Shown here: positions 9,188 to 52,100 of the stretch, in pieces
Layout: each line of letters opens with the position of its first letter
Numbering within the stretch: position 1 is the first letter of the stretch
Origin: Candidatus Omnitrophota bacterium
GTDB lineage: Bacteria > Omnitrophota > Gorgyraeia > Gygaellales > Profunditerraquicolaceae
Reading direction: 5' to 3'
DNA length: 64,000 nucleotides
NCBI GenBank assembly: GCA_011620275.1
Contig: WOZK01000030.1
Coordinates: 70,242 to 134,241 of the forward strand
Translations under genes and position numbers: made by a program
Notes under the pieces: generated by a model
Told to the model about the DNA's origin: nothing
Seen by the model: the letters and a program-made list of their open reading frames with translations, nothing else
The model's database searches: none

Positions 9188-9691
9188 TTATGCTGTTTTT
9201 GACTTTGGCGTGAGGTCTCCGGTCGCCATCGCGATCTTGCCCGCCCGCACCAGTTCTTTTATGTTGAAACGTTTTGCCTCTTCCAGCGTCTTCTTCAGTT
9301 TTTCCTGATCCCCGACTATCTCGACTATCGCCGTATTTCCCCGGCAATGAGTGACTCCCGCTCCCCATTTCTTCGCCAGCGACTCCAGCGCCGCCTTGTC
9401 TCCGGCGGTACAGGACACCTTGATCATCATCAACTCCCGGTCTATGTAATCCTTCTTGGTGAAATCGGTGACCGTGATAACGTCTATCAGTTTGTTCAAC
9501 TGCTTCTTGACCTGTTCGAGTACCTTCTCGTCCCTGGTATCCACCACCATCGTAAGATACGATATGCTGGGGTCGAGGGTCTCGCTGACGGAAAGCGAAA
9601 TAATGTTGTATCCGCGGGCGCTGAACAACCCGGCAATCCTCGCCAGCACTCCGAATTTGTTTTCCACCAGTATAGATATCGTGTGCCTCAT
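9188..9691 (-). CDS. ilvN: Acetolactate synthase small (regulatory) subunit.
   Basis: '[33 protein letters not shown]' ACT domain, 167 aa, adjacent to ilvB. Confidence 0.85.
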
Positions 9692-14819: not shown

Positions 14820-14883
14820 CCGGTACTTTATAAGAACGCGGGCTATAGTCCGTGTTCATCAAGTTTATGAATAATGTTGTCTT

Positions 14884-17099: not shown

Positions 17100-17136
17100 T
17101 CTGATCGGCTCCCTGATGGTTGCGGTCCAAACGCGG

Positions 17137-18309
17137 TTAAATTTTCTTGCCGGCGGCTTTTTTGAGCACCGGAGCTTTGTCGGTACTTTCCCAGCTGAAC
17201 TCCGGTTCCGTTCTTCCGAAATGCCCGTAGCAGGCTGTCTTGATGTATATCGGCCTCAACAGATCGAGACTCTTTATCATCCCTTTCGGCATCAATTCGA
17301 AGTTCTCCCAGATCAATTTCACGAATTCCTGCTCCGAAAGCTTTCCGGTGCCGAAACAATCCACCATTACCGCCAGCGGTTCAGCCTTGCCGATAACGTA
17401 AGCCAGATGCACCTGGCATTTGTCCGCCAGGCCGGCGGCGACTATGTTCTTGGCGATGTAGCGGCACATATAAGCCGCCGAACGATCAACCTTGGTCGGA
17501 TCCTTGCCGGAGAAAGCCCCGCCGCCGGGAGAAACCACGCCGCCGTAAGTGTCCACGACGATCTTCCTTCCGGTCATGCCTGTATCCGACTGCGGCCCTC
17601 CGACCACGAATTTCCCGGTCTCATTGACATAGAACTTGGTGTCTTTATCTATGAAATCCTTGACCACCGGCCTGCCTATAACCTCTATTATTTCCTCTTT
17701 GGCCTTCTTGGTAATAAACTCTCCACTTGTATCCAGGATATCCTCGGTATGCTGGCATGCCAGGACCACCGAATCCAGCCTTTTCGGATGCCCGTCGTGA
17801 TATTCAACCGTAACCTGCGATTTACCGTCCGGGCCGAGATATTTCAGCGTCCCGTCCTTGCGCACCTTTGCCATGCGCGCCACCAGCTTATGCGAAAGCA
17901 TAAGCGATAAAGGCATCAATTCCTCCGTCTCGCGGCAGGCGTAACCGGTCATGAATCCCTGGTCACCGGCGCCGCCCCTGTCGACCCCCTGGGCGATGTC
18001 CGGCGACTGGGTATGTATGGTATTGATGACCGCGCAAGTCTGATAGTCGAAGCCGTACTTCGGATGTGTATAACCTATATTCTTAAGCACGGTTCGGGTA
18101 AGATTGTGGACATCCACGTAGCTTGTCGTGGTGATCTCCCCGCCGACTATCAAAAGCCCCATGGTAACGTATGTTTCGCAGGCGACCCTTCCGTAAGGAT
18201 CGTGCTTCAACACATCGTCAAGCACGGCGTCCGATATCTGGTCGCAGACTTTATCCGGGTGCCCTTCGGCTACCGATTCCGAGGTAAAATAATGCTTGCG
18301 CGGATTCAT
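17137..18309 (-). CDS. metK: S-adenosylmethionine synthetase.
   Basis: '[24 protein letters not shown]' and '[19 protein letters not shown]' signatures. 390 aa. Confidence 0.95.
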
Positions 18310-18363
18310 CCCTTTTCCCCTTTCGATTACTTTAACGTTATATGTATATTTACCCGGTCACGC

Positions 18364-19107
18364 TCACTTCCCGGCGGCGCGGAAATACGCATCAGCTTCC
18401 CTGTAAGAATCATGATGCCCTATATCATACCAGCGGCCGCCGAAAACAAAACAAAAAACATCCTCTTTTCTTCTCAACCACTCTATGAAGAAACCTACGG
18501 CGTCTTTTTTATTGCCCTCTTTAAGATACTCATCCACCAGGCCCAGCTTGAAGCCGGGAAGGTAATAAAGGCACATCCCGACCAGCGCCGAGGCAGGATG
18601 TGCCGGTTTTTCTTGAAAATCTACCACCCTGCCCGAATCCAGGCTGACAACGCCGTATTTCCCGGCTTTTCTACTGTCTTTGATATCGTAGGCCCCGATG
18701 ACGACGGCCGGAGATTTACTGAAAGAGAAAACGGCGAATTCCTCGAGTCCGGAGTCGAAAAGATTATCCCCCCCGATCACAAGCAGGTCTTCCGTGATAC
18801 CCTTGCTGCCGATCACAAAATGCAGATCGCCTATGGCCCCCCTGCGCAATTCCGGGGTGGAGGTCAAATCGTCCACCACCGTTACCCGAAGGCCTCCGCT
18901 ACGCCTCTTAGCCCATCTCTCGAACAAAGAAGCGAATTTGCTGTTGGTGACCACAATGATCTCGTCCACGCCGCGTAGCGCCTCGATCTTGGCGGCGATA
19001 TGATCTATGATCGGCTTGCCGGCAACGGGAAGCAGCGGTTTGGGATAATTCCTGGTCAACGGATACAGCCGCGTGGCGTAACCGGCGGCTAATATAAGCG
19101 CTTTCAT
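18364..19107 (-). CDS. Sugar-phosphate nucleotidyltransferase (NTP_transferase family).
   Basis: 'ALILAAGYATRLYPLTRNYPKPLLPVAGKPIIDH' (the G-x-G-T-R-L motif). 247 aa. Confidence 0.7.
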   Translation of the reverse strand: MKALILAAGYATRLYPLTRNYPKPLLPVAGKPIIDHIAAKIEALRGVDEIIVVTNSKFASLFERWAKRRSGGLRVTVVDDLTSTPELRRGAIGDLHFVIGSKGITEDLLVIGGDNLFDSGLEEFAVFSFSKSPAVVIGAYDIKDSRKAGKYGVVSLDSGRVVDFQEKPAHPASALVGMCLYYLPGFKLGLVDEYLKEGNKKDAVGFFIEWLRRKEDVFCFVFGGRWYDIGHHDSYREADAYFRAAGK

Positions 19108-19117
19108 TTTCTCCTGG

Positions 19118-20848
19118 CTATCCGGTTATTTCCCGCAACTTCTTTTGGCCGAATTCCTCCACTTCCCTGCCGGTGGAAAGGCTGAGAACTCTCCTGGCGA
19201 ATTCCTTCGCTTCATCGAGGTTCAAAGAACGTATTATGTATTTTACCTCGGGGATGCCCAAAGAAGGCATACTGAATTCATCCAGCCCTAACCCCAACAA
19301 TAAAGGAACGAACGCGGGATCGCCGGCCATTTCCCCGCACATGCCGACTTTTATGCCGCGCTCATGGGCGGCGCTGATGACGCTCTGTATCATACGCAGC
19401 ACCGCCGGGTGGCTGGGTTCATAAAGATAGGCGACCTTCTCGTTCGTGCGGTCCACCGCCAGGGAATACTGGATCAGATCGTTCGTTCCTATGCTGAAGA
19501 AGTCGGCTTCTCTGGAAAGCAGGTCGGCGGTGATCGCCGCGGACGGCACCTCGATCATAACACCCACTTCTATATTATCGCTGAACGGCGCGCCTTCGCT
19601 CTTAAGTTCGTCCCTGGCTTCCTGCAAAATCCTGTTAGCCTGCCTAAGTTCTTCTATGCCGGAGATCATCGGATACATCAACCGAAGACTGCCGTGCACC
19701 GAGGCCCGCAGTATGGCGCGCAATTGGACCTTGAATATGTCCGTCCTGGCGAGACAGAAGCGTATAGCCCTCCAGCCCAGGAAAGGCTGCATTTCGCGCG
19801 GGATCGCGAACTGCGAAAGGAATTTGTCGCCTCCCAGATCGATAGTGCGGATCGTCACCGGATAAGGCTTCATCTCCTCGGCCACATATTTATATGCCTG
19901 GTAATGTTCCTCCTCGGAAGGCAGGTCTTTCCTGTTCATATAAAAAAACTCGGTCCTGTAAAGCCCTATGCCCTTTGCCCCGTGGGCCTTCACCGCGGGG
20001 ATCTCTTCCGGGAGCTCTATATTGGCGTGTATCTCGACGCACTTGCCGTCCTGCGTGACCGCATCGAGATCCTTGACGGACAGAAATTTCTCTCCGATCC
20101 CCTGCAGTTTACGGAACTCTTCCTGATACTCGGCGAGAGTGTCCTGGTCCGGTTCGAGGATGACGATACCGGTGCTTCCGTCTACGATAAGCATATCGCC
20201 GTTCTTTATCTTTGACGTCGCCGTTTCTGTCCCGACGACCGCCGGGATCTCCAGCGATTTTGCCATGATGGCGGTATGCGACGTCTTCCCGCCGATGTCC
20301 GTCACGAACGCGCTGACGTTTTGCTTGTGCATGGCGGCGGTGTCCGAAGGGGAAAGGTCGTGCGCCACCACTATGACCTTTTCCGTAAGCCCTTCCAGCC
20401 ATTTGCCCTTCTTGCCGAGCAAGTTGCGCATTACGCGCTTGCTGACGTCGTTTATATCGGAAATGCGCTCCTTTATGTATTCGTCTTCTATGCGGGAGAA
20501 AACCTCGACGTATTTCTTCATCACCTCGAAAAAGATGAAGGCGACGTTGAAACGTTCTTTTTTCAGGCGGGAGATCACCTCTTCAATGAGCATACGGTCT
20601 TCGAGCACCAGCAGGTGCGCGTCGAATATCTGCGCCTGCTCCTGTCCCATGTCGACGGCGATCCGCTTCTGCAGCTCTATGATTTCCTTGCGGGTCTTGA
20701 TCAGGGCCTCTTCGAAGAGCTGTATCTCATAGGGGATATCCTGCTGGGATATCTCCTTTTTTGGAATATCGAACTCTTCCTTGCCTATCCTGTAGGCCTT
20801 GCCCACCACAATCCCGGGAGCTGCGGCTATTCCTTGAAGCTTTATCAT
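19118..20848 (-). CDS. ptsI: Phosphoenolpyruvate-protein phosphotransferase (PTS Enzyme I).
   Basis: 'GGKTSHTAIMAKSLEIPAVVG' with the active-site His, and a PEP-utilising C-terminal domain 'GMCGEMAGDP'. 576 aa. Confidence 0.9.
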   Translation of the reverse strand: MIKLQGIAAAPGIVVGKAYRIGKEEFDIPKKEISQQDIPYEIQLFEEALIKTRKEIIELQKRIAVDMGQEQAQIFDAHLLVLEDRMLIEEVISRLKKERFNVAFIFFEVMKKYVEVFSRIEDEYIKERISDINDVSKRVMRNLLGKKGKWLEGLTEKVIVVAHDLSPSDTAAMHKQNVSAFVTDIGGKTSHTAIMAKSLEIPAVVGTETATSKIKNGDMLIVDGSTGIVILEPDQDTLAEYQEEFRKLQGIGEKFLSVKDLDAVTQDGKCVEIHANIELPEEIPAVKAHGAKGIGLYRTEFFYMNRKDLPSEEEHYQAYKYVAEEMKPYPVTIRTIDLGGDKFLSQFAIPREMQPFLGWRAIRFCLARTDIFKVQLRAILRASVHGSLRLMYPMISGIEELRQANRILQEARDELKSEGAPFSDNIEVGVMIEVPSAAITADLLSREADFFSIGTNDLIQYSLAVDRTNEKVAYLYEPSHPAVLRMIQSVISAAHERGIKVGMCGEMAGDPAFVPLLLGLGLDEFSMPSLGIPEVKYIIRSLNLDEAKEFARRVLSLSTGREVEEFGQKKLREITG

Positions 20849-30679: not shown

Positions 30680-31003
30680 TTATCTTGCTTTAGCCCAAAG
30701 GGCCCTCGCCAGACCCATCAATTCTGCTTTCTCCAGCCGGACCCCGGCGCGGCACAATCCGTCCTCGCGGTTCTTCAATGACCAGACGACCTCCGCCCTG
30801 GTATAAAAAGGCTCGGCCTGTTCGGGGATTTGAAGCCATACCTCCAAACGGGAACTAACCGGCAAACTGCTGCGTGAAGTCAATCCCATACCGTTAGCGC
30901 TGATATCGAAGGTTTCTCCACTGCTTTCTTCGCTTGCCGTGGCCTCCAGAAACTTGAGAGGGAACCGCGCCTGCATCCGTTCAAAAACCCTCCTGTCGTC
31001 CAT
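30680..31003 (-). CDS. PilZ-domain protein (putative c-di-GMP receptor).
   Basis: 'RRVFERMQARF' (RxxxR) and 'DISANGMGL' (DxSxxG) PilZ motifs. 107 aa. Confidence 0.6.
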   Translation of the reverse strand: MDDRRVFERMQARFPLKFLEATASEESSGETFDISANGMGLTSRSSLPVSSRLEVWLQIPEQAEPFYTRAEVVWSLKNREDGLCRAGVRLEKAELMGLARALWAKAR

Positions 31004-31163: not shown

Positions 31164-34100
31164 TCACAGATAAATATCCGTCATATTGCAAACCCCAGAC
31201 AAACCGATACTTATGAAACTTAATGAAGGCAGTGAAAAAGACATCCCCTGCGTATAGAAAGTGGAACCATTCTCCTCGCCGCGAAAGACTGCGTTGTATT
31301 GTTCAACAGGCCTCCATCCTTGCGCAGAATCCATCCCAGGTTCAAGAAAGCGCGCTGCGTCTTCATCGAATATCCCTACCGCGTCCCTTTCGCTGCACCC
31401 TCCGTCCAACGGGTTAAAAACCTCGGCTAAAACAGCCGGCGTTCTCTTCGGATCAAAATCTTTAATAAGCTCATCATTGCCATTTCTTAACGCTCGGATA
31501 AGCTCTTTATCTACGAATTGCCGGCCAAGAATATACACAACCATCCCGTCGATATCTTTTAATTCCCCTATTTTCCCTTGAGCCTCCATCAACTCGATCA
31601 AAAAGATAAATCCGAGCATCGATTGCGGTTCTCTCCGCGTGCGCAAACGGGTAAAAATATTGATTATCGAAAACATCCTGTCCGCCATATAATACAGGCA
31701 GACAACGTTTTGTATCAAAACAGGTCTGATACAATTCAAAAGAAGCAACCGGATCATACCGATAAACGCCTCCGGCTGGTTGTATCCGGCGCGCTCTGAG
31801 AGATAGAGAAAATCTTTTATTATCCCCTCTTTCTCGGTTTCAGCGAGACTGAATTTACGGGCTATTTTTCCGGCAGCCGCATAATTATCAGGTGATAATG
31901 AAGAAAGGATATTACGCCTGTGGCCGGGATAATCATGCTTAAAAGTGTCGATAGTGCTGTATAATGAAACGGCAATGGAATTTTTTTCTTCGGGAACCGG
32001 CCGATTTTCCGCAAGCACCGCTCCGTCACGATATACAACGGAATTAACCGGCACATAGCGCAGAAAACTCAAATAATCCAGTAAAGTCCTGCCTTTGTTG
32101 TCTCCGGAAAGCGCCTCTTCCGGTAATATTATATGCACCGGCCTGTGCTTATTGAATACGGCATAAACGATAAAGATCCCATAGGCCTTAAATATACAAT
32201 CAAATAATTCTCCTCCTGTCAAAAAGACGGTTATGGGCGTTTCAGCGAAACGCGGACATAATCTATCGGCGGAGCCCCGTATCGCATCGACATCCGTATG
32301 ATAGATAATCCGGGGAATTCTCATACATTCGATTACGCAACCCCAGTCTTTTCCCCACACGTCAAGAGCAGCTATCAATTCATCTTCCGCCGCACGGTGT
32401 GATTCTTTATAATCTGCAACGGTAAATACGCCTATTACCCCTCTTCGCCCGCTTCCTCCATCTGCCACAACCGTGCCGCCGTTAACAACCCGTGCCTTTA
32501 TCATTTCCACGTAAGGCGCAATATCGTTAAGTATCACATCCCCTTGATCGCATTCTCCGCCGTCGCCCTTTTGCCCTTGCCCTTTTTCCGCAAGATTGAA
32601 ACCGGGATGCGTTTTCCTCATCTCAAACGCAACGGTTATGCCGAATTCCCGGGCGATAAAATCTACGTACGGCATGGAGGGTTTTTCCCCCGAATAACTA
32701 AATTTTTTCTTAGCCATAGACACTAATATCTGCCTGTCTAAAACAAGCTTCCCCTTCCTTTTTTCCAAGATTCCTTTCCCACTCCAGAACACGCTTAAAA
32801 TCTTACCGGGAGTGTAGCGGGAATTTGTAAAAACCGATACCGGGATCAGCCTCTTCAGGTATTTCTCATCAAATACAAAAGGCCCTTTTTCCCATTGTTC
32901 CCGTATAATCCTCATTAAAACCGGAATCACATAGTTTTGAGTCGCGGGGAAACTCATGGCTGTATTTTTTGTCAAATCAGGCAAACAATAATAGGTAAAC
33001 ATATCTTTTCCCAGTATTCCGCGCCGCTTTAAAAAATCCTCGAAATTTTTATCAAAAACCCGTAATCCCCATTCACCTACGGAAGAGGTGATCATTCCGG
33101 CGTTAAGCTTATTCAGTTTGTTTTTAATAAAATCGTATTTGCCTTTGGACTTACGGCTGATCTTAAGATATTCCATAACCATTCCCGAAGAAAAAGGATA
33201 TCCCAATTCACCGGATTTTATTCCCGCCAGGATTTCAAGTAAGAAATCCAGCGACCCTCCCGGCAAAACAGACAACTCTTCCCAGAATTTATTTTCAATG
33301 CCCCAAAACCGGCCGTTCTCTATTTCCACAACCGGTATCTTATCCATGCCTTTTAATTCTTCGTATAATCTTATGTCGGCCCGCATCCGGAGCAATTGGC
33401 CATACGTACCGTCAAGCAGGGATTGGTGAAATCTACCGGTAGAAACATATTCGCATAACAGCATTTTATCCGCCTCCAATTGCTTGACTATTTCTGCAAC
33501 TGTTTTCATATCCTCCGCACAACCAAAATGCGAGAGCACATCTTCCCGGGTAAAATCCATCTCCAGGAACATTCCGCATTTTCCCGGGATAATAACCGCG
33601 CTCTGTTCGGCTATCCAGCGTATTACGCTTTCCCGGCATACCGATCCTTTTAAATATGCTTCATCTTCCATTAATTCCCACTCTTTCAATAATTCCCCGA
33701 TAATCCTGATCGTTTTTCCGGACACTTGCCTTGCCGAAAAGTAATTTTTATCCTCCGCGCGCACCGCCGCCAGCATCTCACGCATACGCACGGGAGATCC
33801 GCCGGTTATTTCGAAAATTCTTTTCAAAACATGGGATTCCCGGGCGGATAACGGATGAGACTTTATGCCCGCGATAGTCAACCTTCTCCCGGCATTTTTC
33901 TCTTTAAAGAACTTCATAAAACCGATCAAACGGTTAAACCCGCCGGACCCGCCGGATAAAATCATAGTTTGAAATTTATCCGTAACGGAATACCTCTTTT
34001 CTACAACCCCGCTCCGCTCAAGATTCTCCGCTATCGCCGACACCGCGCTTCGGTCGGCGGGAGTGCGGTTTCCCGGAACAAATTGTTCAAGAATATCTTC

Positions 34101-37100
34101 GATGGTAAATACAGACCTTAACAAAACTTCTGTACCGCCCGAAATTACCACACTGCTTCGCATAACCATCCATTCGATTAAATTCTCTTCACTCAACTCC
34201 TTCTTTGACCGCTCATCAACGGCATCATCCGTAAAACCTCCGGTAACCGCGAATCCGCCGTCACGCTGTCTGACCGCGCGGCTATAATCAATCTGATCGC
34301 ACAGTAATGAATACCGGTCCGATTTTAGAAACAGCAAGAGAGGCTCCTGTCCGCCTTCAGCTCTTATTTCCAGCACAACCGGCCGCGGCCGGTAAAGCGC
34401 CTGAATATCCAACCCGGTAAAATGAATAAGCCAAATATACGCATCGTAACGGTCTGCCATCCTTTTAATGATCCGTGGATACATATCGAGCCCCCGGCAT
34501 ATACGATGCCGCCGGCTTTCTTCGTCCCGGGCTTCTTTTATAAAACGCGTATCAAAGCCGAACTGACTGGTTATCCCGTTGCCTAAACGCGGGACCCTGA
34601 ACCTTCGCAAGGCCCTGTTCCCTCCTTCAGTAAGAACCGGCCTGTATTTATGTATGAAATCTCCCACTCGCGCATCGAAAGAAGAATCTTCCAGGGGGAC
34701 ATCAAGCCCGACCGCTTCTGCCAGATATTCTTTGATGCCCGGATATAATTCCTCGTACCGTTCTTGGGTAATCCCTGCGGCTTGATTAACCGCTTTCCAG
34801 TACCAGAGGAACACCCAATCGGTAATAGTCTTTTGTATATTGATCAAAGCGTTCAACAGCCGCGTGTGATAGGCATGGTCGAAATCGAAAGTAAGCCCAA
34901 AATGCGGATAGACGCGCAATTTCCGCACCAGGGTATCGAGATACAGGGGGAAAGACAAATAAAGATTACTTTGCGCGGAGGCCCCGCACACCGGGCCTTC
35001 AATGAGGATCTTGACGTCCTTACTCACAGACGGATGGTTGTAGATTCGGTGAAACGCCAGCAGCTTATCATCGAAGGACGAATACAACTCGCCCCTTAAT
35101 TCATAAAGCACCACTCCCGCGGGTTTTTCTCTCTGTATGGAAGCAAGAAAAACAGCCAGTTCCCGGCAATAGGATATGTATACGGCAATTTCTTCCGCTG
35201 GAAGCGAAGTTATACTATTAGGAGAATGCACGGAGACACACTCCATGCCGAAATCCTGCCTGATCCCGGCCAAAAGCATCTTCATATTCTCCAGATCATC
35301 AAGCTCCGAAAGAGTTCCTATAAATAATTCGAAAGTGCGAAAATCCAGCCTCCAAAGCCTGCGCGCCTGCTCCAGATTGGCATCCAACGCGCATTTACCG
35401 CTGAATACTACACCTAATTGTCCGGTCCCGCCGTCCTTGTCCTTTTCTTCCCATCCCGCCTTTTCTTCCACCGCTCTTTTATCCCTTTTCCAGGAAACGG
35501 TTTTATATAGCGCATACGCCGCCGCTCCCACGGCCAGTAATATATATTCACATTCCAACATATGTTCACTCCATACCCCGAGATCCTTCACCGCGGAATT
35601 AAGGCTGTAAACCATCAGCAGATATAAATAGCCGTATCCGAACGCCTCTATGGCTCTGTAATATATCTTCTGCCGTTTCTTCTCAATTTCTTCCGGTTCC
35701 CAATTCTTTACCAGCTCCAGCACAAAATACGTAATGACCATACCGGCCGATAAAGCGGCAACCGTCAAGTATGCCCCGTATAATTGCAGAGATACAAAGG
35801 TATTGACCAACAACGCCGGGCCGGAGATCAAAGGAAACGCCAACGGCATAATCCAATAAGGAATACGAGTGAATGCGCAGGGAATGGGAATCTGCGGAGT
35901 GATGTATATGAACAGCAATGTTACGCTTACGATTTTCAGCATTCCCAACGCGGAAGGACTGACAGCCGCTCCGGTATATCCTATAAAGACGTAGAATCCC
36001 CCTATCAAAACCGAAACAAGCAGCGCTCGCCGCACTCCTTCTGTTTTCTGGCCGGCATTCAAGTTCAATCCGCCGGGGCCGGTAATGGCCATAAAAGAGG
36101 CGAGTAACCCGGGATAACTTATAGCCAGGATGTAACCGGCCAGCACGACCACGAAATCCGCCGCATAATCCGCGCCGATAACGGCGAAATAGGGTAAAAA
36201 AGGCGCCCCCGCTATAAACGCCGGAATAAAAAACCCCGTTGCGTGTATCCAGGCCCAGCGCGCGCGAATGCTCACTCTTCCCGCGTACGCGCGCCAGTAC
36301 AGCCTGTCCTTCCAGCCGCCGTCAAGATGTTCTTTCCCGTCCGCATTGGGAATAGGGCCGTTATCTATTAAGAAATGGACGCCGGCTGATGGTAAAGAAT
36401 TTAGCTCGGGCTTAAGGACAGGCGCATTTCTATATACCTTTACCGAAAAAGCAGGCAGCACCATACGCCCATGTTCCCCTGCCCATATTACTTCACTTGT
36501 CGAACCGCATCCCCGAGAAGTAAACCCCGTTAGAGAACTTCGTCCTCTAACGGTTTGCTCTGACGGTGGCATTAAACTACCGTCAGATTGGGAATCGGAA
36601 GACCACCTACTAAAGTCGGTGGCTTTCTCTAACGGGGTAAACATGCCGACACTCTGCAACTCTTCATTCGCATAATCGGTAATTTGGCGATCCGTCGACC
36701 TGATCCGGCTTATATCTACGCACACAATCCGATCCCCGACTTTTCTGTATGCTTCCACCATCGGCAACGTCCAGACGATAATCAACCCGTCTTCTTTAAC
36801 AATCCGCCCAAGCAAGTCAGCAACGTATTTTTTAATATCAAAGTCCCCGGACAAATCCAGCCAGCCGAGGCCTTTTAAGACTAAATAATCGGGCTTCTCA
36901 TCGGTCAAATATCCATTCTCTTTTAATCGCGCCAGTTTTTCTTTAATAACTCCAACTTCTCTCGCATCAACCGCTATATTGATGAATGAATCGAAACAAC
37001 GGATACGTTCATCTCCAGAATTATATTCGCTGTCGAACAGTCCGGAAATACCATTCCTCACGGCCCCTACAGTTTGAGATGCCGCGTCCTTCATTGTCTC

Positions 37101-40100
37101 CGGAGTGATATCATTCCCCCGGGTATCTTCATCGAGATTGACGCTGATAATTATTCCCGTATATGCTTTTTTTCTTGTCGTCAATGCCGCGAAGGGAACA
37201 AAATCGCCTCCGGCCAGAAGATAAATCCCGGTTTTCTTTTCTAAACCGAATTCTGCCACGACTCTTTCCCACAAATATAAATATTGGGTCCAAGCATCTT
37301 TTTTTGTTGGCCGGGCATTTCCGCCGTCCGTATAGTCAGACTCATCTTCCACGGCTGACGCAAGTCCTTCTGCCAGCATTAAGGCATGTTTCTTAATCTC
37401 GCCCTCCGGTAAATGCGGAAGAGTCGTTATGACTTCGTCCTGAAAACCTTTACGGGCAAAGTGATATGTTTCTTCGGGAACCCCCTCGATAGAAGCGGCA
37501 TTGAGGTCCTGGATCATATTAGGAAAGAAATTTTCGAGGAAGTAACCTCCGGTAACTAAATCCAGATACAACTTGGGCGCAGCCAAAAACTCATATCTCA
37601 GCAGGGAGAAAATCTTCAGCCAATGATAAGATGTCCTTCCTATTTCCAGCGCGTAGGGAATAATCTCCGCGGTCTCATTACCGGCTGTGCCGCGGCACAA
37701 CTCGCTCATAATTTTGGCCTGGACATACGGCCACGAATTCAAAGCTGTGAACTCATCACGGCGCATATCCGCCTCCGGCCACTGTCTGCACAAAAGCTGT
37801 TGAAGCGCGGCGTCTGCCGCGTCACTGCCTGTCTGCTCGCCGAACGGCAGTTGTCCATCCGAATCAATCCTTCGACGCAATTCATAACAATGACCGGGCC
37901 TGAAAACGGCTCCGTGTATATCCACCAATATCCGGACATTCCCTGCCGTATTTAGACCAAACGCTGCCGCTGCAGGCTGAATACCGGGTCCGCCGCGAGC
38001 GGTCCAATAATCCGGAATTATTGTTTTATCCGAGAACAAAACTTCTCCCCGGACATTTTCTCTCCGCACATTGCTGTCGGTTACCGACAAGGTTTGAATG
38101 ATCCGATGCAGACTCAAGAAAGGCATATTCACGATAAGCTTACCCTCATACATTACCGCGGACTGCCTGAACATAAGTAACCTGTCTGATTCCAGAGGTT
38201 TTTTCTGCAGAAGCGCGAGAAATCGCGGCATATCGAATGTGCTACCTGCGCGCTTTTCCTGAACGCCGGATTCATTCAATAACGCGAAAATTTCGCGGAA
38301 CATCTCCCGGAACTCATCCCAAATATCCGAAGAAACAGTCAATATTTCTTCCGGGCCGGAAACAGCCGAACGTACTTCCTGATCAATCCGCGCGTTAATA
38401 CGCCGTGTCTCGTGCAGAATATCCTCGATTCCACGAAGCGAATCATCACTTCCACCGTCTTTTTCATCCGGATGCATCGCCATCCAGAAATCGACGAACA
38501 AGTGTTTCCGTAGATGATCAATGGTATGGGGATTGCTAATACGCAAATATGAAAGGAGGAATACGGCAGTGCCGACGGGCAGTGCGGAAGCTCTGCTTCT
38601 CGGGGGGCCGGTTTTACTCTCTAGGTAAAGTCCGAATAAGGCCACGGCTAAAATACCGGTTTTGTTCCGCAGGGCACTCCCGGCAGCAATATAATCTTTC
38701 AATTTCTCGAACTCAGCCGCTGATTCAGGCCGGCTCTCTCGGACGAAACGCGAAAAATCATCCGCGCTCAAACCTCCCGGATTCCCCTGGGGGATAACCG
38801 CGTCTATTCTGCGCGCGCATTCCTCAACAGCCCCGCCGTCTGAAGCCGAATCTTCCTTCACTTTTTTTTCTTCCTTTTCCATTGAATTCACATTCCTGAT
38901 CCGTTCGGAATCTTTTAAAACACTCCTCTTTATTCCTTCATATAACACTTCCCGCAGCCGTTTAACGATTGCGTCTATGAAAGGCGCATTACCATATATA
39001 TCCATAGCCCGCTCGGGATAACCGCTTAATCCCGTTTTAACATTTCTGTTGCCTCCGTCGCCGAAAGTTCTCTTTTCTTCATCCCCGATAAACGGATAGT
39101 CCCACTCTTGCACAAGTGAGCTGTTTATACGCTCTACAATAATACTTCCGGACAAATCAACATTGACTTTCAGCAAACCGTTCAACGCGAAACTAAAATA
39201 TCCCCGGTCTTCATTGCAAAACACAGGGTCTTCATAAACCGCAGATATCACATCATGCAAAAAGCCGGCGTATGTTTCTTGCTGTTGCTCCGATGTACGC
39301 GAAGAAATATGCTCGAGAGATTCGAGAAACCGCTCTCTCTGATAAGAAGCTGCGGGCTTATATCCTTTCTCCTGCAGCTCCGCTTTCACCAGATTATCCG
39401 CACGTAATAGGACGACCAACAGTGTATTGATTATATACTCCAGATCTTCCAGGTCCCTGATGTCCACCGCGGAAAGTCGATTATGTAACACCTCATATAA
39501 TCCACGCGGAATCACCACGGTTACTTCTCTACTCATATCCGGCGTATATCCCTCCTGAAGATTTTCAAGATAGAACCTCCTCTTTGTAAGTATCCGCCAC
39601 AAGCCTTCGTGCTGCTGAAATTCCGCTATGATATTCTCCCAATAGGGATAAACGAAAATTGAAAGATCGCCTCTATAGGAAAGGCCTGTAAGTATAGGAA
39701 AAAACACAATGAGACCTATGGCCATTTCTAAAGGCGTTCCCAACCGGATCAAATATAACCCTATAATCGAATGCATGAACGAAGGCAGAAGAACGGCAAA
39801 CATATCTTTGGCAAGATTTTCCGCGGGCAAACCGCATGTTGACATAATATGATAACAAGAAGCCTGTGCTTGGAGTCCAAGCAAATCATCCTTCTTCCTT
39901 TGGGGAACCGTTGAACTGCGTACAAGTGTTTCAAAATCACCGCGAAATATGAGTTTTTCACCGGCGGGATCAATAAAAAATACGTTCCACCATTCTTCAT
40001 CCCCCGCTATTTCCAAAACCTTTGCTCTATCGACAGCGAGCAAAGCATTCCTGGATTTGAACAGGGATGGGAATAACCTCTCCAATGCCCCTCCTCCCTC

Positions 40101-43100
40101 ATAGCGCGATACGACAATCCGCAGCCGCCTTTGGCCAAATAGTGTCCCGGCGCAATAATGAATAATCTCATGCCCTATACCTATGCCCCAGAATAAAGGT
40201 ATTGCGGCCGCAAGAAACAGCATGACCGATCCCCCTAATCCCAGGCCCCAATGAGCGCTCAGAGAAAAACCCGGTAGCAAACCGGATACGAACCATCCCC
40301 CCGCAATAATCGCAAAAAGCGCCAACCGGGAATAATTGAATGATATCTGCCGCGCGCCCGCGAAATAAAACTTGCGCATAAAGTGATGTGGCCTGGAAAT
40401 CGCTCTATCCCCCGGGTTATCGGCATACGGCCTGCCGCCGTCGCCGTTCTGTGCGCGAGGATATCCTTTCAGCGAGGACATTATATGGTTTGCCAATGTT
40501 TTGCGTTCCCAGAAATTTGGGCTTCTACGGTCGGCTTGCTCATGTTTCAGAATCACCGGCAGAACAATCCGGATATTCTTGCCCGTCGGATCGACATCCA
40601 GAGATCCCATACCGAACTTAAAAAACAGGTAAGTATATTTATTTGTTGGTCTGCTATCTACGGGCTTGCCCGCCGCGTAAGCATCAGCGAGACAAGTTTC
40701 GCCATGGAAGCTTTCGGCGGCGAGGCTCGCGGCTATATTCAGGCGTATATAATCAAGCGGATGCGCTAAAATATGCTCAAGAGCCTCGCCGTCTCCACGG
40801 CTTATCCCGATCAAATCATCGATGATTTCTCTTTTGGAGTCGTCCGAAATACGCGAGAAGATTTCTTCTCCTGAACACCATTGGATCTTATAGTGTGTCG
40901 ACGCCTCACCCCATTTCTCGCTGTATTTTTTTATCCGGCTCAGATAAACAAAGAACCTGCCTACTATTTCTTCTCTGCCGCTGAGAAACAATACTCTCGT
41001 CTGATCGTCATCCCCGCCTTCAGGGCCTAAGCTATCAAAAAACATCAATTCCTTGAATAACGCATCCCCACCCCATTCCTCGTCATTCCACTGCTCTTCA
41101 AGCCAGTTCTCCAGCTCTTGAAGGATAGACGAATAGTTAATAGGGAAATCCCCGTCACACAAATATTCACCCTCATTGATAATCCTGTTTTTCCCTCCGT
41201 CCGGATTATTAAGCCGCCGCTCTTCGCGTCCCACGCCAGACATCCCCCCGGACTTTTCTGCCACCATTGTCAGGATACGCGCAAGCTTTGCCGCCTGCTC
41301 GCTATCACCTTTCTCTATCAATTCCAGGATCCGCTTTTCAAATCTTTTGGCAATAAATCTTATGTCATCGTCCGGCAAAGAATAGAATTCCCCGAATCTG
41401 CAAATAGCGTCTAAAATAACGGTGTTATCCGAACCCAGCAGGAACGGAAATAGCGCCCGTACTTCCCTCCCCTCCAGATAAAGCAGATCGCGCGGCCTGC
41501 GGTCCTGCATGATCAGCAGGCTTACTTCATGGGATAGATCATTCACTCTTATCCAGGTGTCCTCAGCAGGTTCACGCCGCAGTTCTATAAGAGAATCTAT
41601 AAGTTCAAGGAACAATCCGGACAATTTCTGCTCCCATTCAGCCCCGCCGTCAAACAATTCCTCTGCCCTTTCCAGACGCGCCGTCTTTAGCGCCCTTATT
41701 ACCGTCTCGGCCTCCCCGGCTATCGCCGATATTTCATTGTCGAAGTAGAGCTCATCCGCCTGTCCGCAGGAAGCCGCGGCTCTTTCTATGGAATCAACTC
41801 CCTGCGGACGCAGAAGCTCCATTTTGAGAATAAGACCTATCTTCTTCTCCCAAGATAGGCCTGCTGTCGAACCAAGAAACCGGCGACATTTCATCCGCCC
41901 CTGCGGCGCTCTCAAAGGTGTGTTGCCTTCGAGTAGATCATACACGTCTTTTTCATACGCTTCCGCGGAAACGCTTAAAAGATCATAGGTGAACTGTTCC
42001 AACGCCCCCTCCCCGAATTCTTCCGCCGATCTACGGTTGAATCTGCTGTACGGCGTCATCAAATGCTCTCCCTGTTTGCGCAAGAGGATACCGCGAAGTT
42101 CATAGTCGCGTCCCCATGCGGAATAGATCGCTATCTTCGGCGGCCAATCCACCCAGGAAACATGCCCGGATATGAAAGAAGCAAAGGAACCAAGATAACT
42201 GTCCGCGGCGATATGCCTGGAATTTATGCCGTCAAGGTAGTATTCATATGAAAACCGGCTGCGGGAAGAAATCAGATGAACGATATGGGCGTTCTGCAGC
42301 GGCAATGTCTGTAAAAGACTATGAATTTCAGCGACGCAGAAAGAAGAGTCGTCGATATAATACAATGCGGGCGGGGCGCGCGAAGAATACAACTCTGCGG
42401 CCAGCATTTTCGCCTTCTTCCCTTCGCCATAACCGCAGAAACGGATATTTCCCTCCGGAATATCAATGCCGGCGCTCTTTAATACCGCGAGAGTCCCCGC
42501 TTTCGTGCTTTCATCACGGCCGGTCAGAACGACAATTCTCAAGCCAAGGCGTTCAGCCGTCTTTAGAAGATGATCCGCCCCTTCCGTCATCCGGTAAATA
42601 CCCAGGCGCACTCCCAATCTCTCTACATCAGTATATTCTTTCATGGCTACGCTTTTGAGCCAATCCACCTGTTCCTGCATCCAGATCCCGAACTCTTCCG
42701 GCTCTTTGATCTCCCCGGAGCTGTATATATTGTTCTGTATGCTGTCCTTGATCATATAATACCGCCTGCGTATAAAATCCGACGAAGGGTAATCCAGTGT
42801 CGTCCGGAGCAAAGTGTCGTCCAGGTCCACGATAAGCACCCCGCCGCTTACAGCAGTCCTCTCCATATTGCCGGCCGCTTCAAAAAGGCTCCCGGTGGAA
42901 AAACTAACCGGGCCTGCCCCCCCGTCATTTTCGCACGAGCGAATACTTGGCCTTCCGATAGGCCAAGGTAAAATCCGACACTCCGCGGAATAATCTGCTC
43001 CGCGTTTTTGCGCGTAGGCCGGCAGATTATTTATGCTCCTTAGATAACCGATCATACCGGAAAGAATAGCGGCCTCCCTGGTGTCGTAGTTTTCTAACGT

Positions 43101-46100
43101 TCTGTCTATGATTTCGCTGGTACAAGCCGACAAAGGCGTCTCGGTGGAGCGTATCAAAAGAATTAACTTGGACAGGTCTATACCGCAGAATCCCAGGAAA
43201 CGCTTGAATCCGGAAGAAGAACTAATCAATTCTATTGTTTTCTCCGGTTGCGGCGCTATGGATGTAACGGCGTTGCAGCTATGAAGGATGCCGCTGATAA
43301 CCGACAATAATGCATATTCAAGGTTGTATCTTTCTTTAACGGCGAAAATAAGGAATAGATACCCTCTGCGCGCCGGGTCATAATTCTTCAAGAAGCCGCC
43401 GGCGTTCGAATACTTAATATGGTCGAAAACCCACATCAACGGTTTCAACTGGCGGCCTGTAACCTGATAAGTTGTCTTCAATTGCTCGAGTATCAGCCCG
43501 CAAGAAACGTCGAAATCTGGCGTCCGTCTATCGGCGTCTCTCCCAGAATAAGAAACCAACAAATCCGCCATCTTTCGCAAATCCCCCGTTTGCGAAAGTG
43601 AAATCTCCGCCTTGAAGAAGTCATTTTCCGGCAGTAACTGATGGGAAACAACCCGGACTTCTTCATTAAGATACCTTCGGGCATCACCGTCCGGCAGGGT
43701 GCGCTTTAAACGCACCTGTCTGCCGATCCCCTCTTCATATTCCATACCAATATGGCTCAACTCTATTCGGTCAAAGCCAAGGCTGAACCAGCGTTTGATA
43801 GTCTCTCCCAGGCGGAGTTCTTCCGTGCATATTCCGGAGGTGCTCATCTCATCTATTCGCTCAAAGGCGTGAAAACGGGGATTATACAATATTTCCTCCA
43901 GGGCGAACGCGAATATTTTCCTGCCGAAACCGCTCTTTGCCCATCGTTCCTTACGTATGGATATTTTTCCCAACGCGCAAGTATTTCTCCCTTGACTGTC
44001 CTTAGAAACCGACACTTCAAAAGTCAGCACCCCGCGTCCGTCATCCGCGGCCGCCCTGTATATATACAACCCTCCCCCGGCCGGCCTCAGATAAGACACA
44101 TTCTGCTCCGATATGCGCATCCCGTCCCTGTAAACGACCACCGGCCCGGATCCGCCGTCGTGAATATCTTCCGCGGAAATCCCCGGTACCGATATCAAAC
44201 CGTTAATGCCCGTTATATCTTCAGCCCGCGCCTGGCGCGCTGCCTTCCGCCATCGCTCATCCGGCACTGCCGGCAGAGGCGTTTTCATCTCTTCAACGTA
44301 ACCGAACAAGCCCGCTTTCATGACTTTACCGAATATAAGCTTTCGATCCTCCACGCGTACGCTGTCACACCTTAGTGTCGCGAGGCGGCTGCGAATAATC
44401 TTCCATAATTCTCTGCTGTCGATACAAACTCCAGTCATCTCAAAGTAACCGGCAGTCGGAAAGCTATCTCTGATATCATCAAAAACAGCGCTTAATAACA
44501 TCCCCGCAGAGACAGAAGGCGCGCCAATGCCTTTATAGATCGACAAATCCATCATTGTTCCCGCGTTGGCCTCGAAATAGAATTCCACTGTCCCCCATTT
44601 GCAACCGCAGATAACGTATTCTCTCCCATCTTTCCCAAAGATACGAGTTATACGCAGGCGAGAATCTTCAAGACCAGTATCCTCCCGGATCAACCTGCCG
44701 CCGTCGGGTAAAGAAATAAAATAATCCCCTCTGTAAGCCCGGTTTAAGAAATTATTCCGTTGGCAATATAGTTTATTCAGTTTGTCCTCTCCTGATTCTC
44801 CCGGGCACAAGAGATTGAGAATCATATAATATAGACTTTCTCCGTTCCTCCCGGCGGCATCAAGGGCCACTCCACTACCGGTAATTTCCTCCATAAGAGG
44901 CTCCATCAATAAATAGCCCGGCCTTAGTGTTTCATCCGAGAAAATACGGTAAAGCTCCCCAGGGACTCTTTGTGAAGACACGAATTGCTTTAACCTCGGC
45001 AGATCATCCCAAGGACAGGCGAATAAAGTATCTATCCCGTCTGTTTGCTCAAGGCGGCCCTCAGCGGCATTAAATTTCATTTGATCCATCTGCATACGGA
45101 CGGCAAAATATGTATCTCTTCCTATTTCTACGCGTAATATCCTCACTCTTTCCAATATGTTTTCTGTATAGAAATAACGCATCGGCAAACCTAAATCGAG
45201 ATCTCCGACACAAACAGTGGTAACACCTGACAAATCATTTATCTTCCCGGTTTCGCGGAAAACTATTTCACCGTTGGGTGAATTACCGCATTCCCCGCAG
45301 CTTATTTCCTTACAAATAAGATCACCATAGTATTCGCTTAAATTCCTCTCCTTATTAAGATTAACCGCAACCAGGTCTTCCAGTTCTGCTGCGTAAGGAA
45401 CAATGCCCCGTTTTCCTAAGATCATTGCATCATACGGGCTGAATCCGGCAAGATAATCCCGCTCTTTAAACCCGAATTCTGCCATAATATGCGGAACCGA
45501 CATACGACCTTTCCCATACGGCAGCAATAACGAAAGAACTCTAAAATGGTCAACATTGATATGCAATTTCTTCATCCCTTCTATTAGAAAATGCGGCATA
45601 AGGCAGCAATCGCCATACCCGCAACTCAAAACCTCTTGAGGAGAAAAAACATCCACGTTTCGCTCGATAACACCATATTTAATATATTCCCCATAACCGT
45701 ATTTATTCCAGTCCAATTTTTTATTCATTAGTTCCGACAACTTCCGCAGCGCTATTGGTAAAGCTGTTTTTTCTCGGCCGCCGTCCTTTTCATCCGGATG
45801 CATCGCCATCCTTCTTATCTGCCACTCCGATCCCAATTTATCCCGGCCTTCGGAAACGTCGCGTTTGGGATTACTTATGCTTATGTAAATATCGAAATTG
45901 CCGTCGGGATAACAATCCTTCAGTTTTACGAACATCGTGTTTATATAACGCTCCACTTCGTCCTGTATTTCTTGTTTCGCATTCGGGTAGGAATATTCCC
46001 TCCATTTTATATTAGTCGTTTCCTTCGCGTATCCGGGAGCCATATATAACAGGAGGTCTTTATACTCTTCCAGCGACAAACAAGCCGTCACACCGTCTTC

Positions 46101-49100: not shown

Positions 49101-52100
49101 CCCGAGAGTAAGCTTGCGCGCTCCGGCAAATTCACGCAAAGCCTGAAAGCTTTCCTTCAGCTTAATACTAAGCACATCCTCTTCGGATAAAGAATAATCT
49201 TCGCTCTCTTGCGCGTCAGATACCGCGGCGATCGACGCTTGTGCGACGTTGTGCCAATAGAGGGCGAACAGCAAATCACGTAAACTGAGCGTCTGTCCGG
49301 CCGCGGAATAAATATCACGGCCTTCCTGAAGAACTCCTTGGATTAAAAGCACTAATTCGTCCTCGGCCTCTTTCCGGGTTTGATATGCCAACCCTTTCGG
49401 ATATAAAAACCCGCCGCAATAATGACGCTGCGCTTTTATTTGAAATAAAGAGCCTTTTCTACAGGCTTCTTCCAAATATTCCGCATTACTATCCGTATAA
49501 TAGGACTCAATCTCAGCCGCAATGATGCCGATGGTAAGTGTAAGGCTGACGCGGGCACTCACTTTTTCATCAGGGTCGTATACCGTATACACAAAACCCT
49601 TCCGATCGGAATGCCAATAAACAATCATCCCGCCTTTCCTGGCCTGTTCCAGAAACACACGCGCGCGCGCGTCAAAATGAGCCCGCTGGGACGCCGTGTT
49701 CTCCCCGAAATAGGGGATATCATTATAAAACGCCTGCCTGGCAAGGCTGCGCAGAGGTTTCCCGTATTCAGAAGACCAGCGTAATGGAGCAGGCCGGCGC
49801 CCGGGATTTTCACAGAATACCGCATCCCACATATTCACCGCCATATATAAATCTCTATACCGGTCCTGCTTGACAAACCGTTCAAGATCGGCGCCGTAGA
49901 GATCCACAAGGACATTCAAGGCCTGTTCGGGGATCTTGCCGGAAAGAATCAAGACCTCAGGAGATGTACGCAGAAGAAATTCTTTGAGTGCCCGATTCCT
50001 CTCACGAGACAATATCTGCCGCAGACGCGGTAGAATATTTTTGTTATCGGCCCCTCCATCTTTACCTGTTCTTTTACGCCCTCCGGCCGGTTCAGTATGC
50101 CCGCCGTTTTTTTCTTCTCTTATACCTGTATTTAGCCGGGGGGAAATAATTCCTTGCGCGTCAGAGCCCTTCCGAATTTCTAACTCATATCCGCCGTCCT
50201 TGGTATTCTCTAAAGGCAGATTCAATACTGTTTGCGAAAATAGTCCTAAAATGTCCGTCTGGTTCCTTTCTCCGTTATATACTATTCCTTCAATAATCTT
50301 CACCGCAATATTGTTCAACCATTCCCCCTCCGGTCGGAACCCAAACCTAAGATAAAATATTAACGCGCCGGCCCCTAAAGCATCCGGGTTGTTAATCTGG
50401 CAGGAAGGAATAATAAATCTGTCCAACATGTATTCGTTATTCTCAAAAATACTGTTTACGACCGCCAGCCGCGAAGGAAAGATTTCCCTTGCCCTGTGTT
50501 GTGGCCTGTATTCCTTAAAAAAGTGCATACCTAAAGATAGGTCTCCTCCAAATAAATGGCTGAGACCGTAACCAATTATTTTCTGTGTGTTCTTATCCAT
50601 AAAAATCTCGAGAAATCCTTCCAAGTTGATGTCTCTTTGATCCGGGATTAGAACCAAAGAAGTATTTTGGTCCAACTCCGCCCGGTAAATAGTTTGAAGA
50701 TCCAAGAGACCAAGATTCGCCAAACTGTTTTTTTGTCTAAGTAATTCCACGGCAGGGATGGATAGAGTTTCAGCAGATAATCCGGTTATTTTATTGACTT
50801 TTATCTCACAAGGACGACGCAGTAATTCTCGCATCTCTTTGGGAAGCATCCACATCCCTAATTCCCAACGTAAAGAAGGAATCCCCTGACCGGAAGCAAG
50901 GAGCGGAGGAAATTTTCTCCCCCCATCCATTCGATCTGTCACCGTTACTCTCCCACTTCCCAGCACACCTTCCAACGGACACGATGTCTTTTTTATATTA
51001 CCCCCGTCTAAATTGCCGGAGACACCAGCCTGAGGTCGGGGTTTGTCAGGTAACTTTAAGGCTATATAGAAACAAGTTATCGCAAGCCCCCAGCATGTTC
51101 CTGCCGGAAAATCTAAACCGGAGAGATACGATAATAAACCTAAAGGTATAATCATGCCTGCCAGGATTAAATATAGAAGCGGACTCTCTTCCTTGGACTT
51201 TTCCGCAATATCATCTTCGCTTATAAACAATAATACCGCGGCCCCGAATAATGTTCCGCCCCATACTCCCTGAATCACAAAACCCGCGAGCATAAATATA
51301 AAACCCTTGATTGCGTGAACACCTCCGTCACTACGGACTGCTCCCGAAGATCCATTGTCTGTGTCTTTCCGCTTTATTTGCGCTTTCCACCATTGCGGCA
51401 GACTGGAAACCGGGATGTTTATATCATATTTCTCCAATTGTTCCAACCCGGTCCAATCACGTTCCCATAGATGCAAGATGGCGGGGGAAGCTATCTCTCC
51501 CATCACATACCAGTCGGGAAAACATTCCACAAAAAATTCATATAAACGTGAATGTATTAGCGAACCATAACCTTTGTGTTGGAACTTCCAGCTCATTGCC
51601 AGATTCTTCAGCCAGAGAGTTTTGTTTTTATTGACCTTTCCCGCTTTTTTCGAGAAAGGAAAATTAGTAAATTCAAATAAGAAAAGAATACCTTTATTGC
51701 CCGCGCCCACTTCATGAACATAAATAGGATTTGTCCCAATCTGCTCATATCTCGCCTGCTCAAGGATTTCCTTTTCAGCAACCAGCAGCCGGATCTCAAA
51801 AAGCTCCTTTTCACCTATTATCCTGACATTCTTCATATACGCGTAAACCAATGTTCCTTGACCCGCGGTATATTCATATCTCCCGTTCCAGAACGAGGCA
51901 CGACCTCCCTGAGGATAATCTTCACGTATTAGTACTCCTAAAGGTCCCCCGTTCTTAGATTCCAACTCCTGCCCCAAACGCCCCAGCCAGGAATAATTCT
52001 CAAACATATCCGCCCGGGCGCCGCCGTCAAAACCGAAAGATTCATCTCCCGGCTGATATATCCCTCCCCTTTCTCTATACCGTTTCAACAACGGCTGAAG

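Follow-up and report, generated by a model that had tools for sequence, protein, structure and literature searches.

Membrane modules bounded by a recurrent Asp-Gly-Gly motif in a giant open reading frame of Candidatus Omnitrophota

The region analysed here (hereafter the window) is a stretch of 64,000 nucleotides (nt) from a Candidatus Omnitrophota bacterium (assembly GCA_011620275.1, contig WOZK01000030.1, positions 70,242 to 134,241). It harbours a giant gene, a single open reading frame (ORF) of 10,932 amino acids (aa) on the minus strand (31164-63962). Window coordinates are used throughout unless another genome is named; residue p of the giant protein corresponds to nt 63962-3(p-1), and all features described within the giant are on the minus strand. 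A sequence-only reading had noted several hydrophobic blocks in this protein and proposed that the chain is threaded through the membrane, with enzyme modules alternating between cytoplasm and periplasm. Our analyses make us lean towards the view that the giant is a typical transmembrane (TM)-only multi-enzyme gene of Omnitrophota, whose blocks are self-contained membrane modules, each enclosed in one unit delimited by a recurrent Asp-Gly-Gly (DGG) motif, and not threads.

Exact-sequence lookup placed seven of eight housekeeping proteins of the window in clusters at 90% identity or more, with named members that are overwhelmingly Candidatus Omnitrophota bacterium, and the host is therefore an Omnitrophota bacterium. 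Housekeeping genes in the vicinity of the giant gene include lpxB, msbA, rpsB, tsf, pyrH, frr, ptsI, metK, ahcY and ilvD, and further neighbours are branched-chain amino-acid genes, pfk, an ORF containing a phosphoglycerate kinase (PGK) domain and a prepilin peptidase gene. Directly downstream of the giant gene lies a gene for a PilZ-domain protein (30680-31003, minus strand; PilZ match at E 4e-10), a synteny published for the majority of Omnitrophota giant genes (10.1101/2023.11.21.568195).

Giant ORFs of this phylum are the subject of several works (Nielsen & Lui 2026, 10.64898/2026.06.07.730766; West-Roberts et al. 2023, 10.1101/2023.11.21.568195; Seymour et al. 2023, PMC10066038). According to this literature, the giant of V. 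archaeovorus has 39,678 aa and 42 helices, and 94% of the 916 proteins of at least 10,000 aa are membrane-targeted, with a median of 16 helices. Of the giants of that size, 46% have been labelled 'TM-only' and interpreted as cytoplasmic-domain proteins anchored in the membrane; a class of 'multi-enzyme metabolic clusters' has been distinguished, and C39 domains represent the commonest architecture cluster reported. The TM helices have been treated as scattered anchors, and the cleavage points are stated to be unknown. The ORF described here shares with the TM-only multi-enzyme giants its phylum, its length of more than 10,000 aa, a hydrophilic N-terminus devoid of signal peptide, the downstream pilZ gene, and a composition of many distinct, mostly unannotatable modules without a dominant repeat. 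Its 14-17 predicted TM helices, all in four blocks, compare with the published median of 16 and make up approximately 2-3% of the residues. Unlike in giants of the Archaeovorin type (West-Roberts et al. 2023), no Pfam match to SecA DEAD, C39 or S8 domains was detected in whole-chain scans or in per-module scans of about two thirds of the modules. Giant ORFs rich in TM helices have been described before in Omnitrophota, and the present one matches that class in all features compared, the SecA, C39 and S8 domains excepted. What distinguishes it from the published giants is that its helices resolve into four discrete modules, one of them of the MarC type, and that the chain harbours a regular DGG punctuation.

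Pfam matches in the giant comprise FAD_binding_2/Succ_DH_flav_C, AP_endonuc_2, UPF0489, CTP_transf_like and a weak HAD match, with six different families found, each in a single copy. The earlier proposal of enzyme-like soluble modules between the blocks thus holds for the modules with such matches, the rest being unannotatable. Self-BLAST ruled out that the giant is a repeat protein: modules 2 and 3 (62412-63482, aa 161-517) form the sole paralogous pair of the chain (28% identity, E 7e-13).

The hydrophobic blocks do lie where they had been reported. Kyte-Doolittle peaks (19-residue window, score of at least 1.6) are found at aa 4215-4280, 7878-7934, 8054-8096 and 9244-9418, and the conversion of coordinates is correct, nt 51048-51320 corresponding to block 1 and nt 35703-36260 to aa 9236-9420 of block 4. 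With the Hessa scale, all nine 19-residue windows of the whole protein with a summed insertion free energy of at most 2.5 kcal/mol are in blocks 1, 2 and 4. Hydrophobic windows as such are no more numerous than expected by chance (15 vs 13.8 +/- 3.5 in 200 shuffled sequences). These windows are clustered, 12 of the 15 falling within the four block modules that make up 9.1% of the chain (binomial P 1e-10). Charge-free runs of at least 24 aa are also in excess, with 10 in the giant vs a mean of 2.0 and a maximum of 6 in 500 shuffles, and the two longest, of 52 and 49 aa, exceed both the mean (27) and the maximum (46) of the shuffled sequences. Isolated hydrophobic peaks at aa 282, 2696 and 10732 are probably cores of soluble domains. 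Judged from these sequence properties, the blocks appear to be membrane-spanning modules, block 3 being a weak case.

Block 4 is the best characterized of them. It makes up module 32 (35436-36323, aa 9214-9509), with DGG boundaries upstream at 36315-36323 (aa 9214) and downstream at 35427-35435 (aa 9510), and corresponds to a divergent domain of the MarC/UPF0056 type with eight predicted helices. The block had been described as having about six; it extends to aa 9488. A MarC-homologous core of six helices (35580-36221, aa 9248-9461) contains the motif PLAFPLISGP. The core is preceded by an extra N-terminal helix, TM0 (36171-36257, aa 9236-9264), which follows an Arg-rich flank and is absent from free-standing MarC proteins, and it is followed by an extra C-terminal helix, TM7 (35499-35549, aa 9472-9488), and then by a Lys/Arg-rich flank.

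Apart from close relatives (79-87% identity), an exhaustive HMMER search with aa 8375-9510 found only P0038 and P0044, which are distant homologues of block 4 and trace to two Omnitrophota metagenome-assembled genomes (MAGs), L002 (34% GC) and L003 (54% GC). In the genome collection, homologues of the block 4 module were found only in two Omnitrophota MAGs. The signature P(L/V)(A/S)FPLI(A/S)GP is common to the three modules. The Pfam MarC match of block 4 is weak (E 0.0088), the best homologue reaching E 6.7e-5. Searching TM modules and module 21 against Pfam (E<=10) and NCBIfam (E<=1) yielded no match other than this one. A profile of the three block 4 modules retrieved 304 proteins (E<=1e-3), and the 120 of them that were listed are all free-standing PF01914 proteins, most of 190-210 aa. 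Profile-profile alignment of block 4 with 22 free MarC proteins using hhalign gave a probability of 98.7% and an E value of 2.9e-16; the 189 aligned columns span MarC positions 17-218 of 224. In 107 aligned sequences P160, L161, P164, L165 and G168 are invariant, the family motif being P-L-A-F-P-L-I-A-G-P-G. An AlphaFold2 model of block 4 computed with an alignment is all-helical, with eight long helices and a mean predicted local distance difference test (pLDDT) score of 70.9, rising to 86-93 in the core. A Foldseek comparison of the model with the PDB gave no match at E<=0.001; we know of no solved MarC structure. Block 4 is thus predicted to be a complete but divergent MarC-family six-helix domain with one added helix at each end. 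The suspicion that the blocks might be buried hydrophobic cores does not apply to it, given its full-length homology to MarC membrane proteins. The function of the MarC family, which we take to be the NAAT family of TCDB (2.A.95), is poorly known, and block 4 is best described as a MarC-like putative transporter.

The likeness to MarC extends to the distribution of charges. In 22 free MarC proteins, the mean numbers of Lys and Arg residues in successive segments are 0.55, 3.86, 0.27, 2.86, 0.82, 3.09 and 0.82, and the short, Lys/Arg-poor tails therefore indicate that both termini are outside (N-out/C-out). The core of block 4 keeps the six helices and this loop pattern. As anticipated from the positive-inside rule, 19 Lys and Arg residues are found in its flanks and even loops vs a single one in its odd loops, and because this bias runs across eight helices, both ends of block 4 are predicted to face the cytoplasm (N-in/C-in). 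The added end helices would thereby convert the N-out/C-out arrangement of free MarC into N-in/C-in in the giant. The MarC-like module of L002 likewise has eight helices. Beyond the moved termini, the domain of the giant differs from MarC/UPF0056 proteins (PF01914) in being embedded in a giant chain, free MarC proteins having approximately 200 aa, in scoring below the Pfam gathering threshold, and in harbouring a 19-residue insertion in the region of the first core helix.

Block 1 occupies module 14 (51009-51329, aa 4212-4318), between DGG motifs at 51321-51329 (aa 4212) and 51000-51008. Its helices are at aa 4220-4248 (29 aa), 4261-4283 (23 aa) and possibly 4285-4302 (a short segment of 18 aa), so the four helices first proposed are reduced to two or three; the first of them begins 8 residues past the DGG. 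Block 2 is in module 27 (39060-40442, aa 7841-8301), between DGG motifs at 40434-40442 (aa 7841) and 39051-39059. The four to five helices of the earlier reading come to four here. They pair into two hairpins, at aa 7879-7930 and aa 8054-8096, which are separated by a soluble insert of approximately 120 aa and have outer loops of 9 and 5 residues devoid of Lys and Arg. The lowest insertion free energies of the protein are those of blocks 1 and 2, in which 29 and 52 successive residues, respectively, are free of charge. The only HExxH motif of the giant, HEIIH (40158-40172, aa 7931-7935; 0.22 expected), lies in block 2, where the second helix ends on its inner side or directly after that helix. 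The idea of a membrane zinc metalloprotease of the M48 or M50-like type found no Pfam, NCBIfam or PDB match and no homologues for block 2, and a single-sequence AlphaFold2 model was uninformative (pLDDT 38). PDB sequence searches with block 2 and module 21 gave noise only, and a word-indexed homologue search with blocks 2 and 3 (aa 7841-8502) found nothing.

Block 3 corresponds to module 29 (38460-38840, aa 8375-8501), between DGG motifs at 38832-38840 (aa 8375) and 38451-38459. Of the two helices attributed to it, a hydrophobic hairpin is indeed present (aa 8436-8474, nt 38541-38657). It is weak, with 12-14 hydrophobic residues per arm, and falls short of both the Kyte-Doolittle and the Hessa thresholds, giving a count of 0-2 helices. 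The module is conserved in relatives, and in one of them, L004 (see below), it is found elsewhere, after the module corresponding to aa 6470-6605. In sum, blocks 1, 2 and 4 pass the TM criteria, as the sequence-only reading had supposed for all the blocks, and block 3 does not.

The boundaries of these modules share one motif. DGG is the most over-represented tripeptide of the giant. Its 37 occurrences are approximately nine times the 4.2 predicted by composition, a first-order model predicting 7.6, and 37 of the 96 Gly-Gly dipeptides are preceded by Asp. It divides the chain into about 37 mostly unrelated units of 19-856 aa, starting with a 19-residue N-terminal peptide (the first DGG is at residues 20-22), and its sites are in hydrophilic stretches or linkers. 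Each TM block is inside exactly one such unit (aa 4212-4318, 7841-8301, 8375-8501 and 9214-9509), and all seven recognised domains are similarly confined to single units. In the 23 other ORFs of the window, DGG occurs twice vs 3.05 expected. Relatives with 74-85% identity retain the motif at 14 of the 15 sites that could be aligned, and it is enriched 8- to 46-fold in L003, L002/P0038, P0044 and P0006. DGG delimits the MarC-like module at both ends in all three lineages, and in L003 a Cation_efflux (CDF) transporter domain (69.5 bits) begins 13 residues after a DGG.

The codons used at these sites are unusual. At the 37 DGG sites, Asp is encoded by GAC in 34 cases (34% gene-wide) and the first Gly by GGC in 22 (26%), GGT being almost absent. 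The nucleotide motif GACGGNGG is found 35 times on the coding strand of the giant, of which 34 in frame 0, and three times in the remaining 31 kb. The motif is spelled GACGGCGG in the giant and GATGGTGG in the lineage with 34% GC, so that the amino acids are kept and the codons differ. A genome-wide nucleotide signal of the Chi-like or Shine-Dalgarno-like type was rejected as the origin of DGG, since GACGGNGG is almost confined to frame 0 of the giant and the AT-rich lineage uses other codons. The codon skew might reflect translational accuracy, the need to avoid GATGG with its out-of-frame ATG, or recombination that homogenises the sites.

The DGG units also behave as units of rearrangement. 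In a relative with 60-85% identity (L004; JGI 3300045909, Ga0496406_004747), the modules of aa 5126-8493 are reordered and partly duplicated, and 9 of the 16 homology breakpoints are within 10 aa of a DGG, vs 1.13 expected (0 of 5000 randomisations). The region is split there into several called genes, of 3481, 69, 596, 858 and 264 aa. Because the modules are rearranged and duplicated and the region is divided among genes, either the giant locus is structurally unstable or the L004 contig is partly misassembled.

Equivalent modules appear to carry other marks in other lineages. The soluble module 30 (aa 8502-8878) has distant homologues within other large proteins, where four kinds of flank are seen: DGG at either end in P0006; RSEVRN and RSETRK in P0010 (7,044 aa), in which RSE occurs 19 times; [L]RPLA[AS]xE in P0013, P0015, P0032 and P0037; and Ser/Pro-rich linkers in P0005 and P0009. 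By analogy, lineage-specific motifs around equivalent modules would be expected of co-evolving pairs of protease and site in polyproteins, and in-frame recombination of cassettes might also leave such motifs as signatures at the junctions. A scan of metagenomes returned only a second copy of the L003 organism. Recurring boundary motifs of the forms R[SA]E[VA]RN and [SA][IL]LRPLA[AS]xE were seen in P0010, P0013, P0015, P0032, P0037 and P0017, where they border the counterpart of module 30.

Block 4 limits how the chain can be disposed relative to the membrane. Its clear N-in orientation requires an even number of helices upstream, and with an even block 2, block 1 must be even as well for a consistent single-chain topology. 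The simplest consistent arrangement would leave all soluble modules in the cytoplasm, and it is most likely that the blocks tether a cytoplasmic chain to the membrane and do not weave it back and forth. Helices that form discrete membrane-protein modules with cytoplasmic ends argue against large-scale threading. The proposed alternation of enzyme modules between cytoplasm and periplasm is not supported, as the giant has no signal peptide, block 4 is N-in/C-in, block 2 consists of two tight hairpins and block 3 is a hairpin or not TM at all. A single threaded chain with soluble enzyme modules on alternate sides would find some comfort in the possible third helix of block 1, in the odd crude helix counts of some L003 modules, in published predictions that put many domains of other Omnitrophota giants outside the cell, and in the HAD-like module between blocks 1 and 2, the best match of which is a family that includes periplasmic acid phosphatases. 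However, threading would require the export of approximately 3,500 residues between blocks 1 and 2 and runs against the even total needed upstream of block 4. In L003, moreover, GNAT (acetyl-CoA-dependent) and ROK (ATP-dependent) domains flank TM modules on either side, and West-Roberts et al. themselves called the extracellular predictions unreliable (10.1101/2023.11.21.568195). We therefore regard threading as improbable. That some or all blocks might be buried cores or amphipathic surface helices of soluble domains is similarly unlikely. Such a reading could draw on the unremarkable total of hydrophobic windows, the short arms of block 3, the probable cores among the isolated peaks and the uninformative model of block 2, but it is refuted for block 4 by homology to an integral-membrane family together with the charge bias, and the charge-free runs and low insertion energies of blocks 1 and 2 and the clustering of the segments speak against it elsewhere.

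Whether the tethered chain is cut or remains whole is a separate matter. The sequence-only reading had offered, as its second option, a polyprotein anchored by the blocks before processing. That option suits the data better than threading, inasmuch as the blocks are self-contained DGG-bounded units; processing would be a putative step, for which no protease domain was detected. In our reading, the chain would be translated from a cytoplasmic N-terminus, each block inserting co-translationally as hairpins or as an even-numbered bundle, and the soluble modules and all DGG marks would stay in the cytoplasm. The blocks would serve both as tethers and as small membrane proteins, namely the MarC-like putative transporter, the four-helix module with HExxH and small hairpins. 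Cutting after Gly-Gly at the DGG recognition sites would then release approximately 35 proteins, four of them membrane proteins. That DGG marks such recognition sites is a tentative proposal, to which we give appreciable but less than even credence. In its broader form, namely that Omnitrophota multi-enzyme giants are true polyproteins with lineage-specific punctuation (DGG, R[SA]EVRN, LRPLAAxE) cut by a cytoplasmic protease, the idea is possible and on the doubtful side.

It is also possible, again at less than even confidence, that the giant is an uncut megaprotein of 10,932 aa tethered to the inner membrane, in which the DGG motifs are linkers or junction signatures that in-frame cassette recombination has left behind or makes use of. 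The altered module order, the duplications and the breakpoints at DGG in L004, the strong codon bias at the motif in the lineage of the giant and the lack of a detected protease are all in keeping with it. The extra helices of the MarC-like module would be understandable in a domain that has to remain connected to a cytoplasmic neighbour at either end, and the published reading of TM-only giants is that of membrane-anchored cytoplasmic-domain proteins. Nevertheless, the amino acids of the motif are conserved while its codons vary with lineage, GACGGNGG is almost wholly limited to frame 0 of this gene, and a flexible linker has no need of a fixed tripeptide. In addition, the DGG closest to the N-terminus has nothing upstream to join, and the different, equally strict motifs around module 30 in other lineages resemble the coevolution of proteases with their sites.

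Several observations weigh against the view that we favour, including its processing component. No position besides D-G-G itself is conserved around the sites, and the strong preference for GAC and GGC at these sites leaves room for a role at the DNA or RNA level. No peptidase domain is found in the giant or in the adjoining 31 kb, apart from the prepilin peptidase. The helix counts derive from hydrophobicity and charge bias, together with one alignment and a single model of medium confidence. The MarC score of block 4 (15.9 bits) is under the Pfam gathering threshold of 23.9, and its L002 homologue reaches 19.2 bits. No homologues of blocks 1-3 were found beyond close relatives, block 3 possibly does not cross the membrane, and block 1, with two or three helices, is of ambiguous parity, the three-helix reading misplacing its Lys/Arg-rich C-terminal flank. 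Finally, the MarC-like module of L003 lacks the extra N-terminal helix and has seven helices by a crude count, and several other L003 modules give odd helix counts.

An even helix number as a general rule for DGG modules was thus not upheld in L003. The MarC-like module of that MAG (9944-10714 on the plus strand of L003, ORF aa 3266-3519) begins straight after the motif, DGG being followed directly by MMGLLYQ, and its seven-helix count is compatible with the native N-out orientation only on condition that the N-terminus is released.

Large modular chains in which short linker sites separate unrelated modules, and in which modules are reshuffled between strains, are known from MARTX toxins and viral polyproteins, and Gly-Gly classically occupies P2-P1 in the sites of C39 and other papain-like proteases. 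The giant resembles these systems in its modular build, in the short sites between unrelated modules, in reshuffling and in the Gly-Gly pair. In MARTX toxins, an internal CPD cuts the modules apart after Leu, whereas the giant has no detected protease and its cleavage is conjectural. C39 peptidases cut at a double-Gly motif (PMC6363468) in export leaders, whereas the sites of the giant are internal and predicted to be cytoplasmic. Moreover, the leader consensus of C39 substrates (hydrophobic residues at -4, -7 and -12) is not found upstream of its DGG motifs, and no C39 or papain-like peptidase was detected in the giant or in the other 31 kb of the window.

The words 'DGG' and 'polyprotein' are both absent from the giant-ORF preprints of Nielsen & Lui and West-Roberts et al., and the regular punctuation is thus not described there. 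In the literature searched, we found no paper joining Omnitrophota and polyproteins, and none among the top-ranked results linked Omnitrophota with double-glycine sites. As far as we have searched, the DGG-bounded autonomous membrane modules, the helices of the MarC-like module acting as adaptors and the lineage-specific punctuation are new. Whether Omnitrophota giants function as one chain or are cut up is a recognised puzzle, for which the published topology predictions are admittedly unreliable. Should the polyprotein reading be true, one 33-kb gene would give rise to approximately 35 separate proteins, including a free MarC-like membrane protein, the added end helices of the latter would keep both cut sites in the cytoplasm, and DGG-type marks would be the missing cleavage points of these giants. 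The punctuation makes the question of processing testable in existing metaproteomic data, in the form of neo-termini at DGG, and the motif offers a principled way to divide giants into units for structure prediction.

Some further features of the locus deserve mention. The only peptidase recognised in the window is the prepilin (type IV leader) peptidase of family A24, coded at 4858-5664 on the minus strand. Within the giant, module 21 (44706-45785, aa 6060-6419) contains QEVLSCGYGDCCLMPHF...VPHIMAEF...SPYD, also read by eye as QEVLSCG..GDC..H..D. Transglutaminase-like or C39-like cysteine peptidases have a similar Cys-His-Asp pattern, a likeness noted by eye and to be taken only as a lead. 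This idea received no Pfam, NCBIfam or PDB support, and a word-indexed search with aa 6060-6419 found nothing. Module 21 has a paralogue in L004, at 28% identity.

The final 35 or so residues of the giant comprise a Ser-rich hydrophobic tail of 31 aa devoid of charges (31179-31271, aa 10898-10928; MSFSLPSLSFISIGLSGVC, mean Kyte-Doolittle score 1.44), which could be a C-terminal anchor or a sorting signal. A palindromic element of approximately 130 nt (36513-36644, aa 9107-9150; FTPLEKATDFSRWSSDSQSDGSLMPPSEQTVRGRSSLTGFT) is translated in frame within the giant and is present in one copy in the window. Its RNA is predicted to form three hairpins (-55.4 kcal/mol, z = -5.1). The possibility that the giant ORF contains a conserved RNA gene was considered, and no Rfam family matched. 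The corresponding peptide is found in about 30 unrelated small or chimeric proteins of the public collection, at 58-84% identity, appended in some cases to a glutamate-5-kinase-like or MazG-like protein. It ends in ...LTGFT, and in P0033 it continues directly into a pilin-like N-terminus, GFTLIQLV. Palindromic elements of Rickettsia tolerate in-frame insertion, and by analogy the present one looks like a mobile element with the same tolerance.

Two further large ORFs were noted. In the window, the PGK domain mentioned above is part of a 793-aa ORF (730-3111, minus strand), approximately twice the usual length of a PGK, the remaining sequence of which is unannotated. In L003, a 1,726-aa ORF beside the giant gene of that MAG (14305-19485, plus strand) fuses class II aldolase, phosphofructokinase and GAPDH C-terminal domains.

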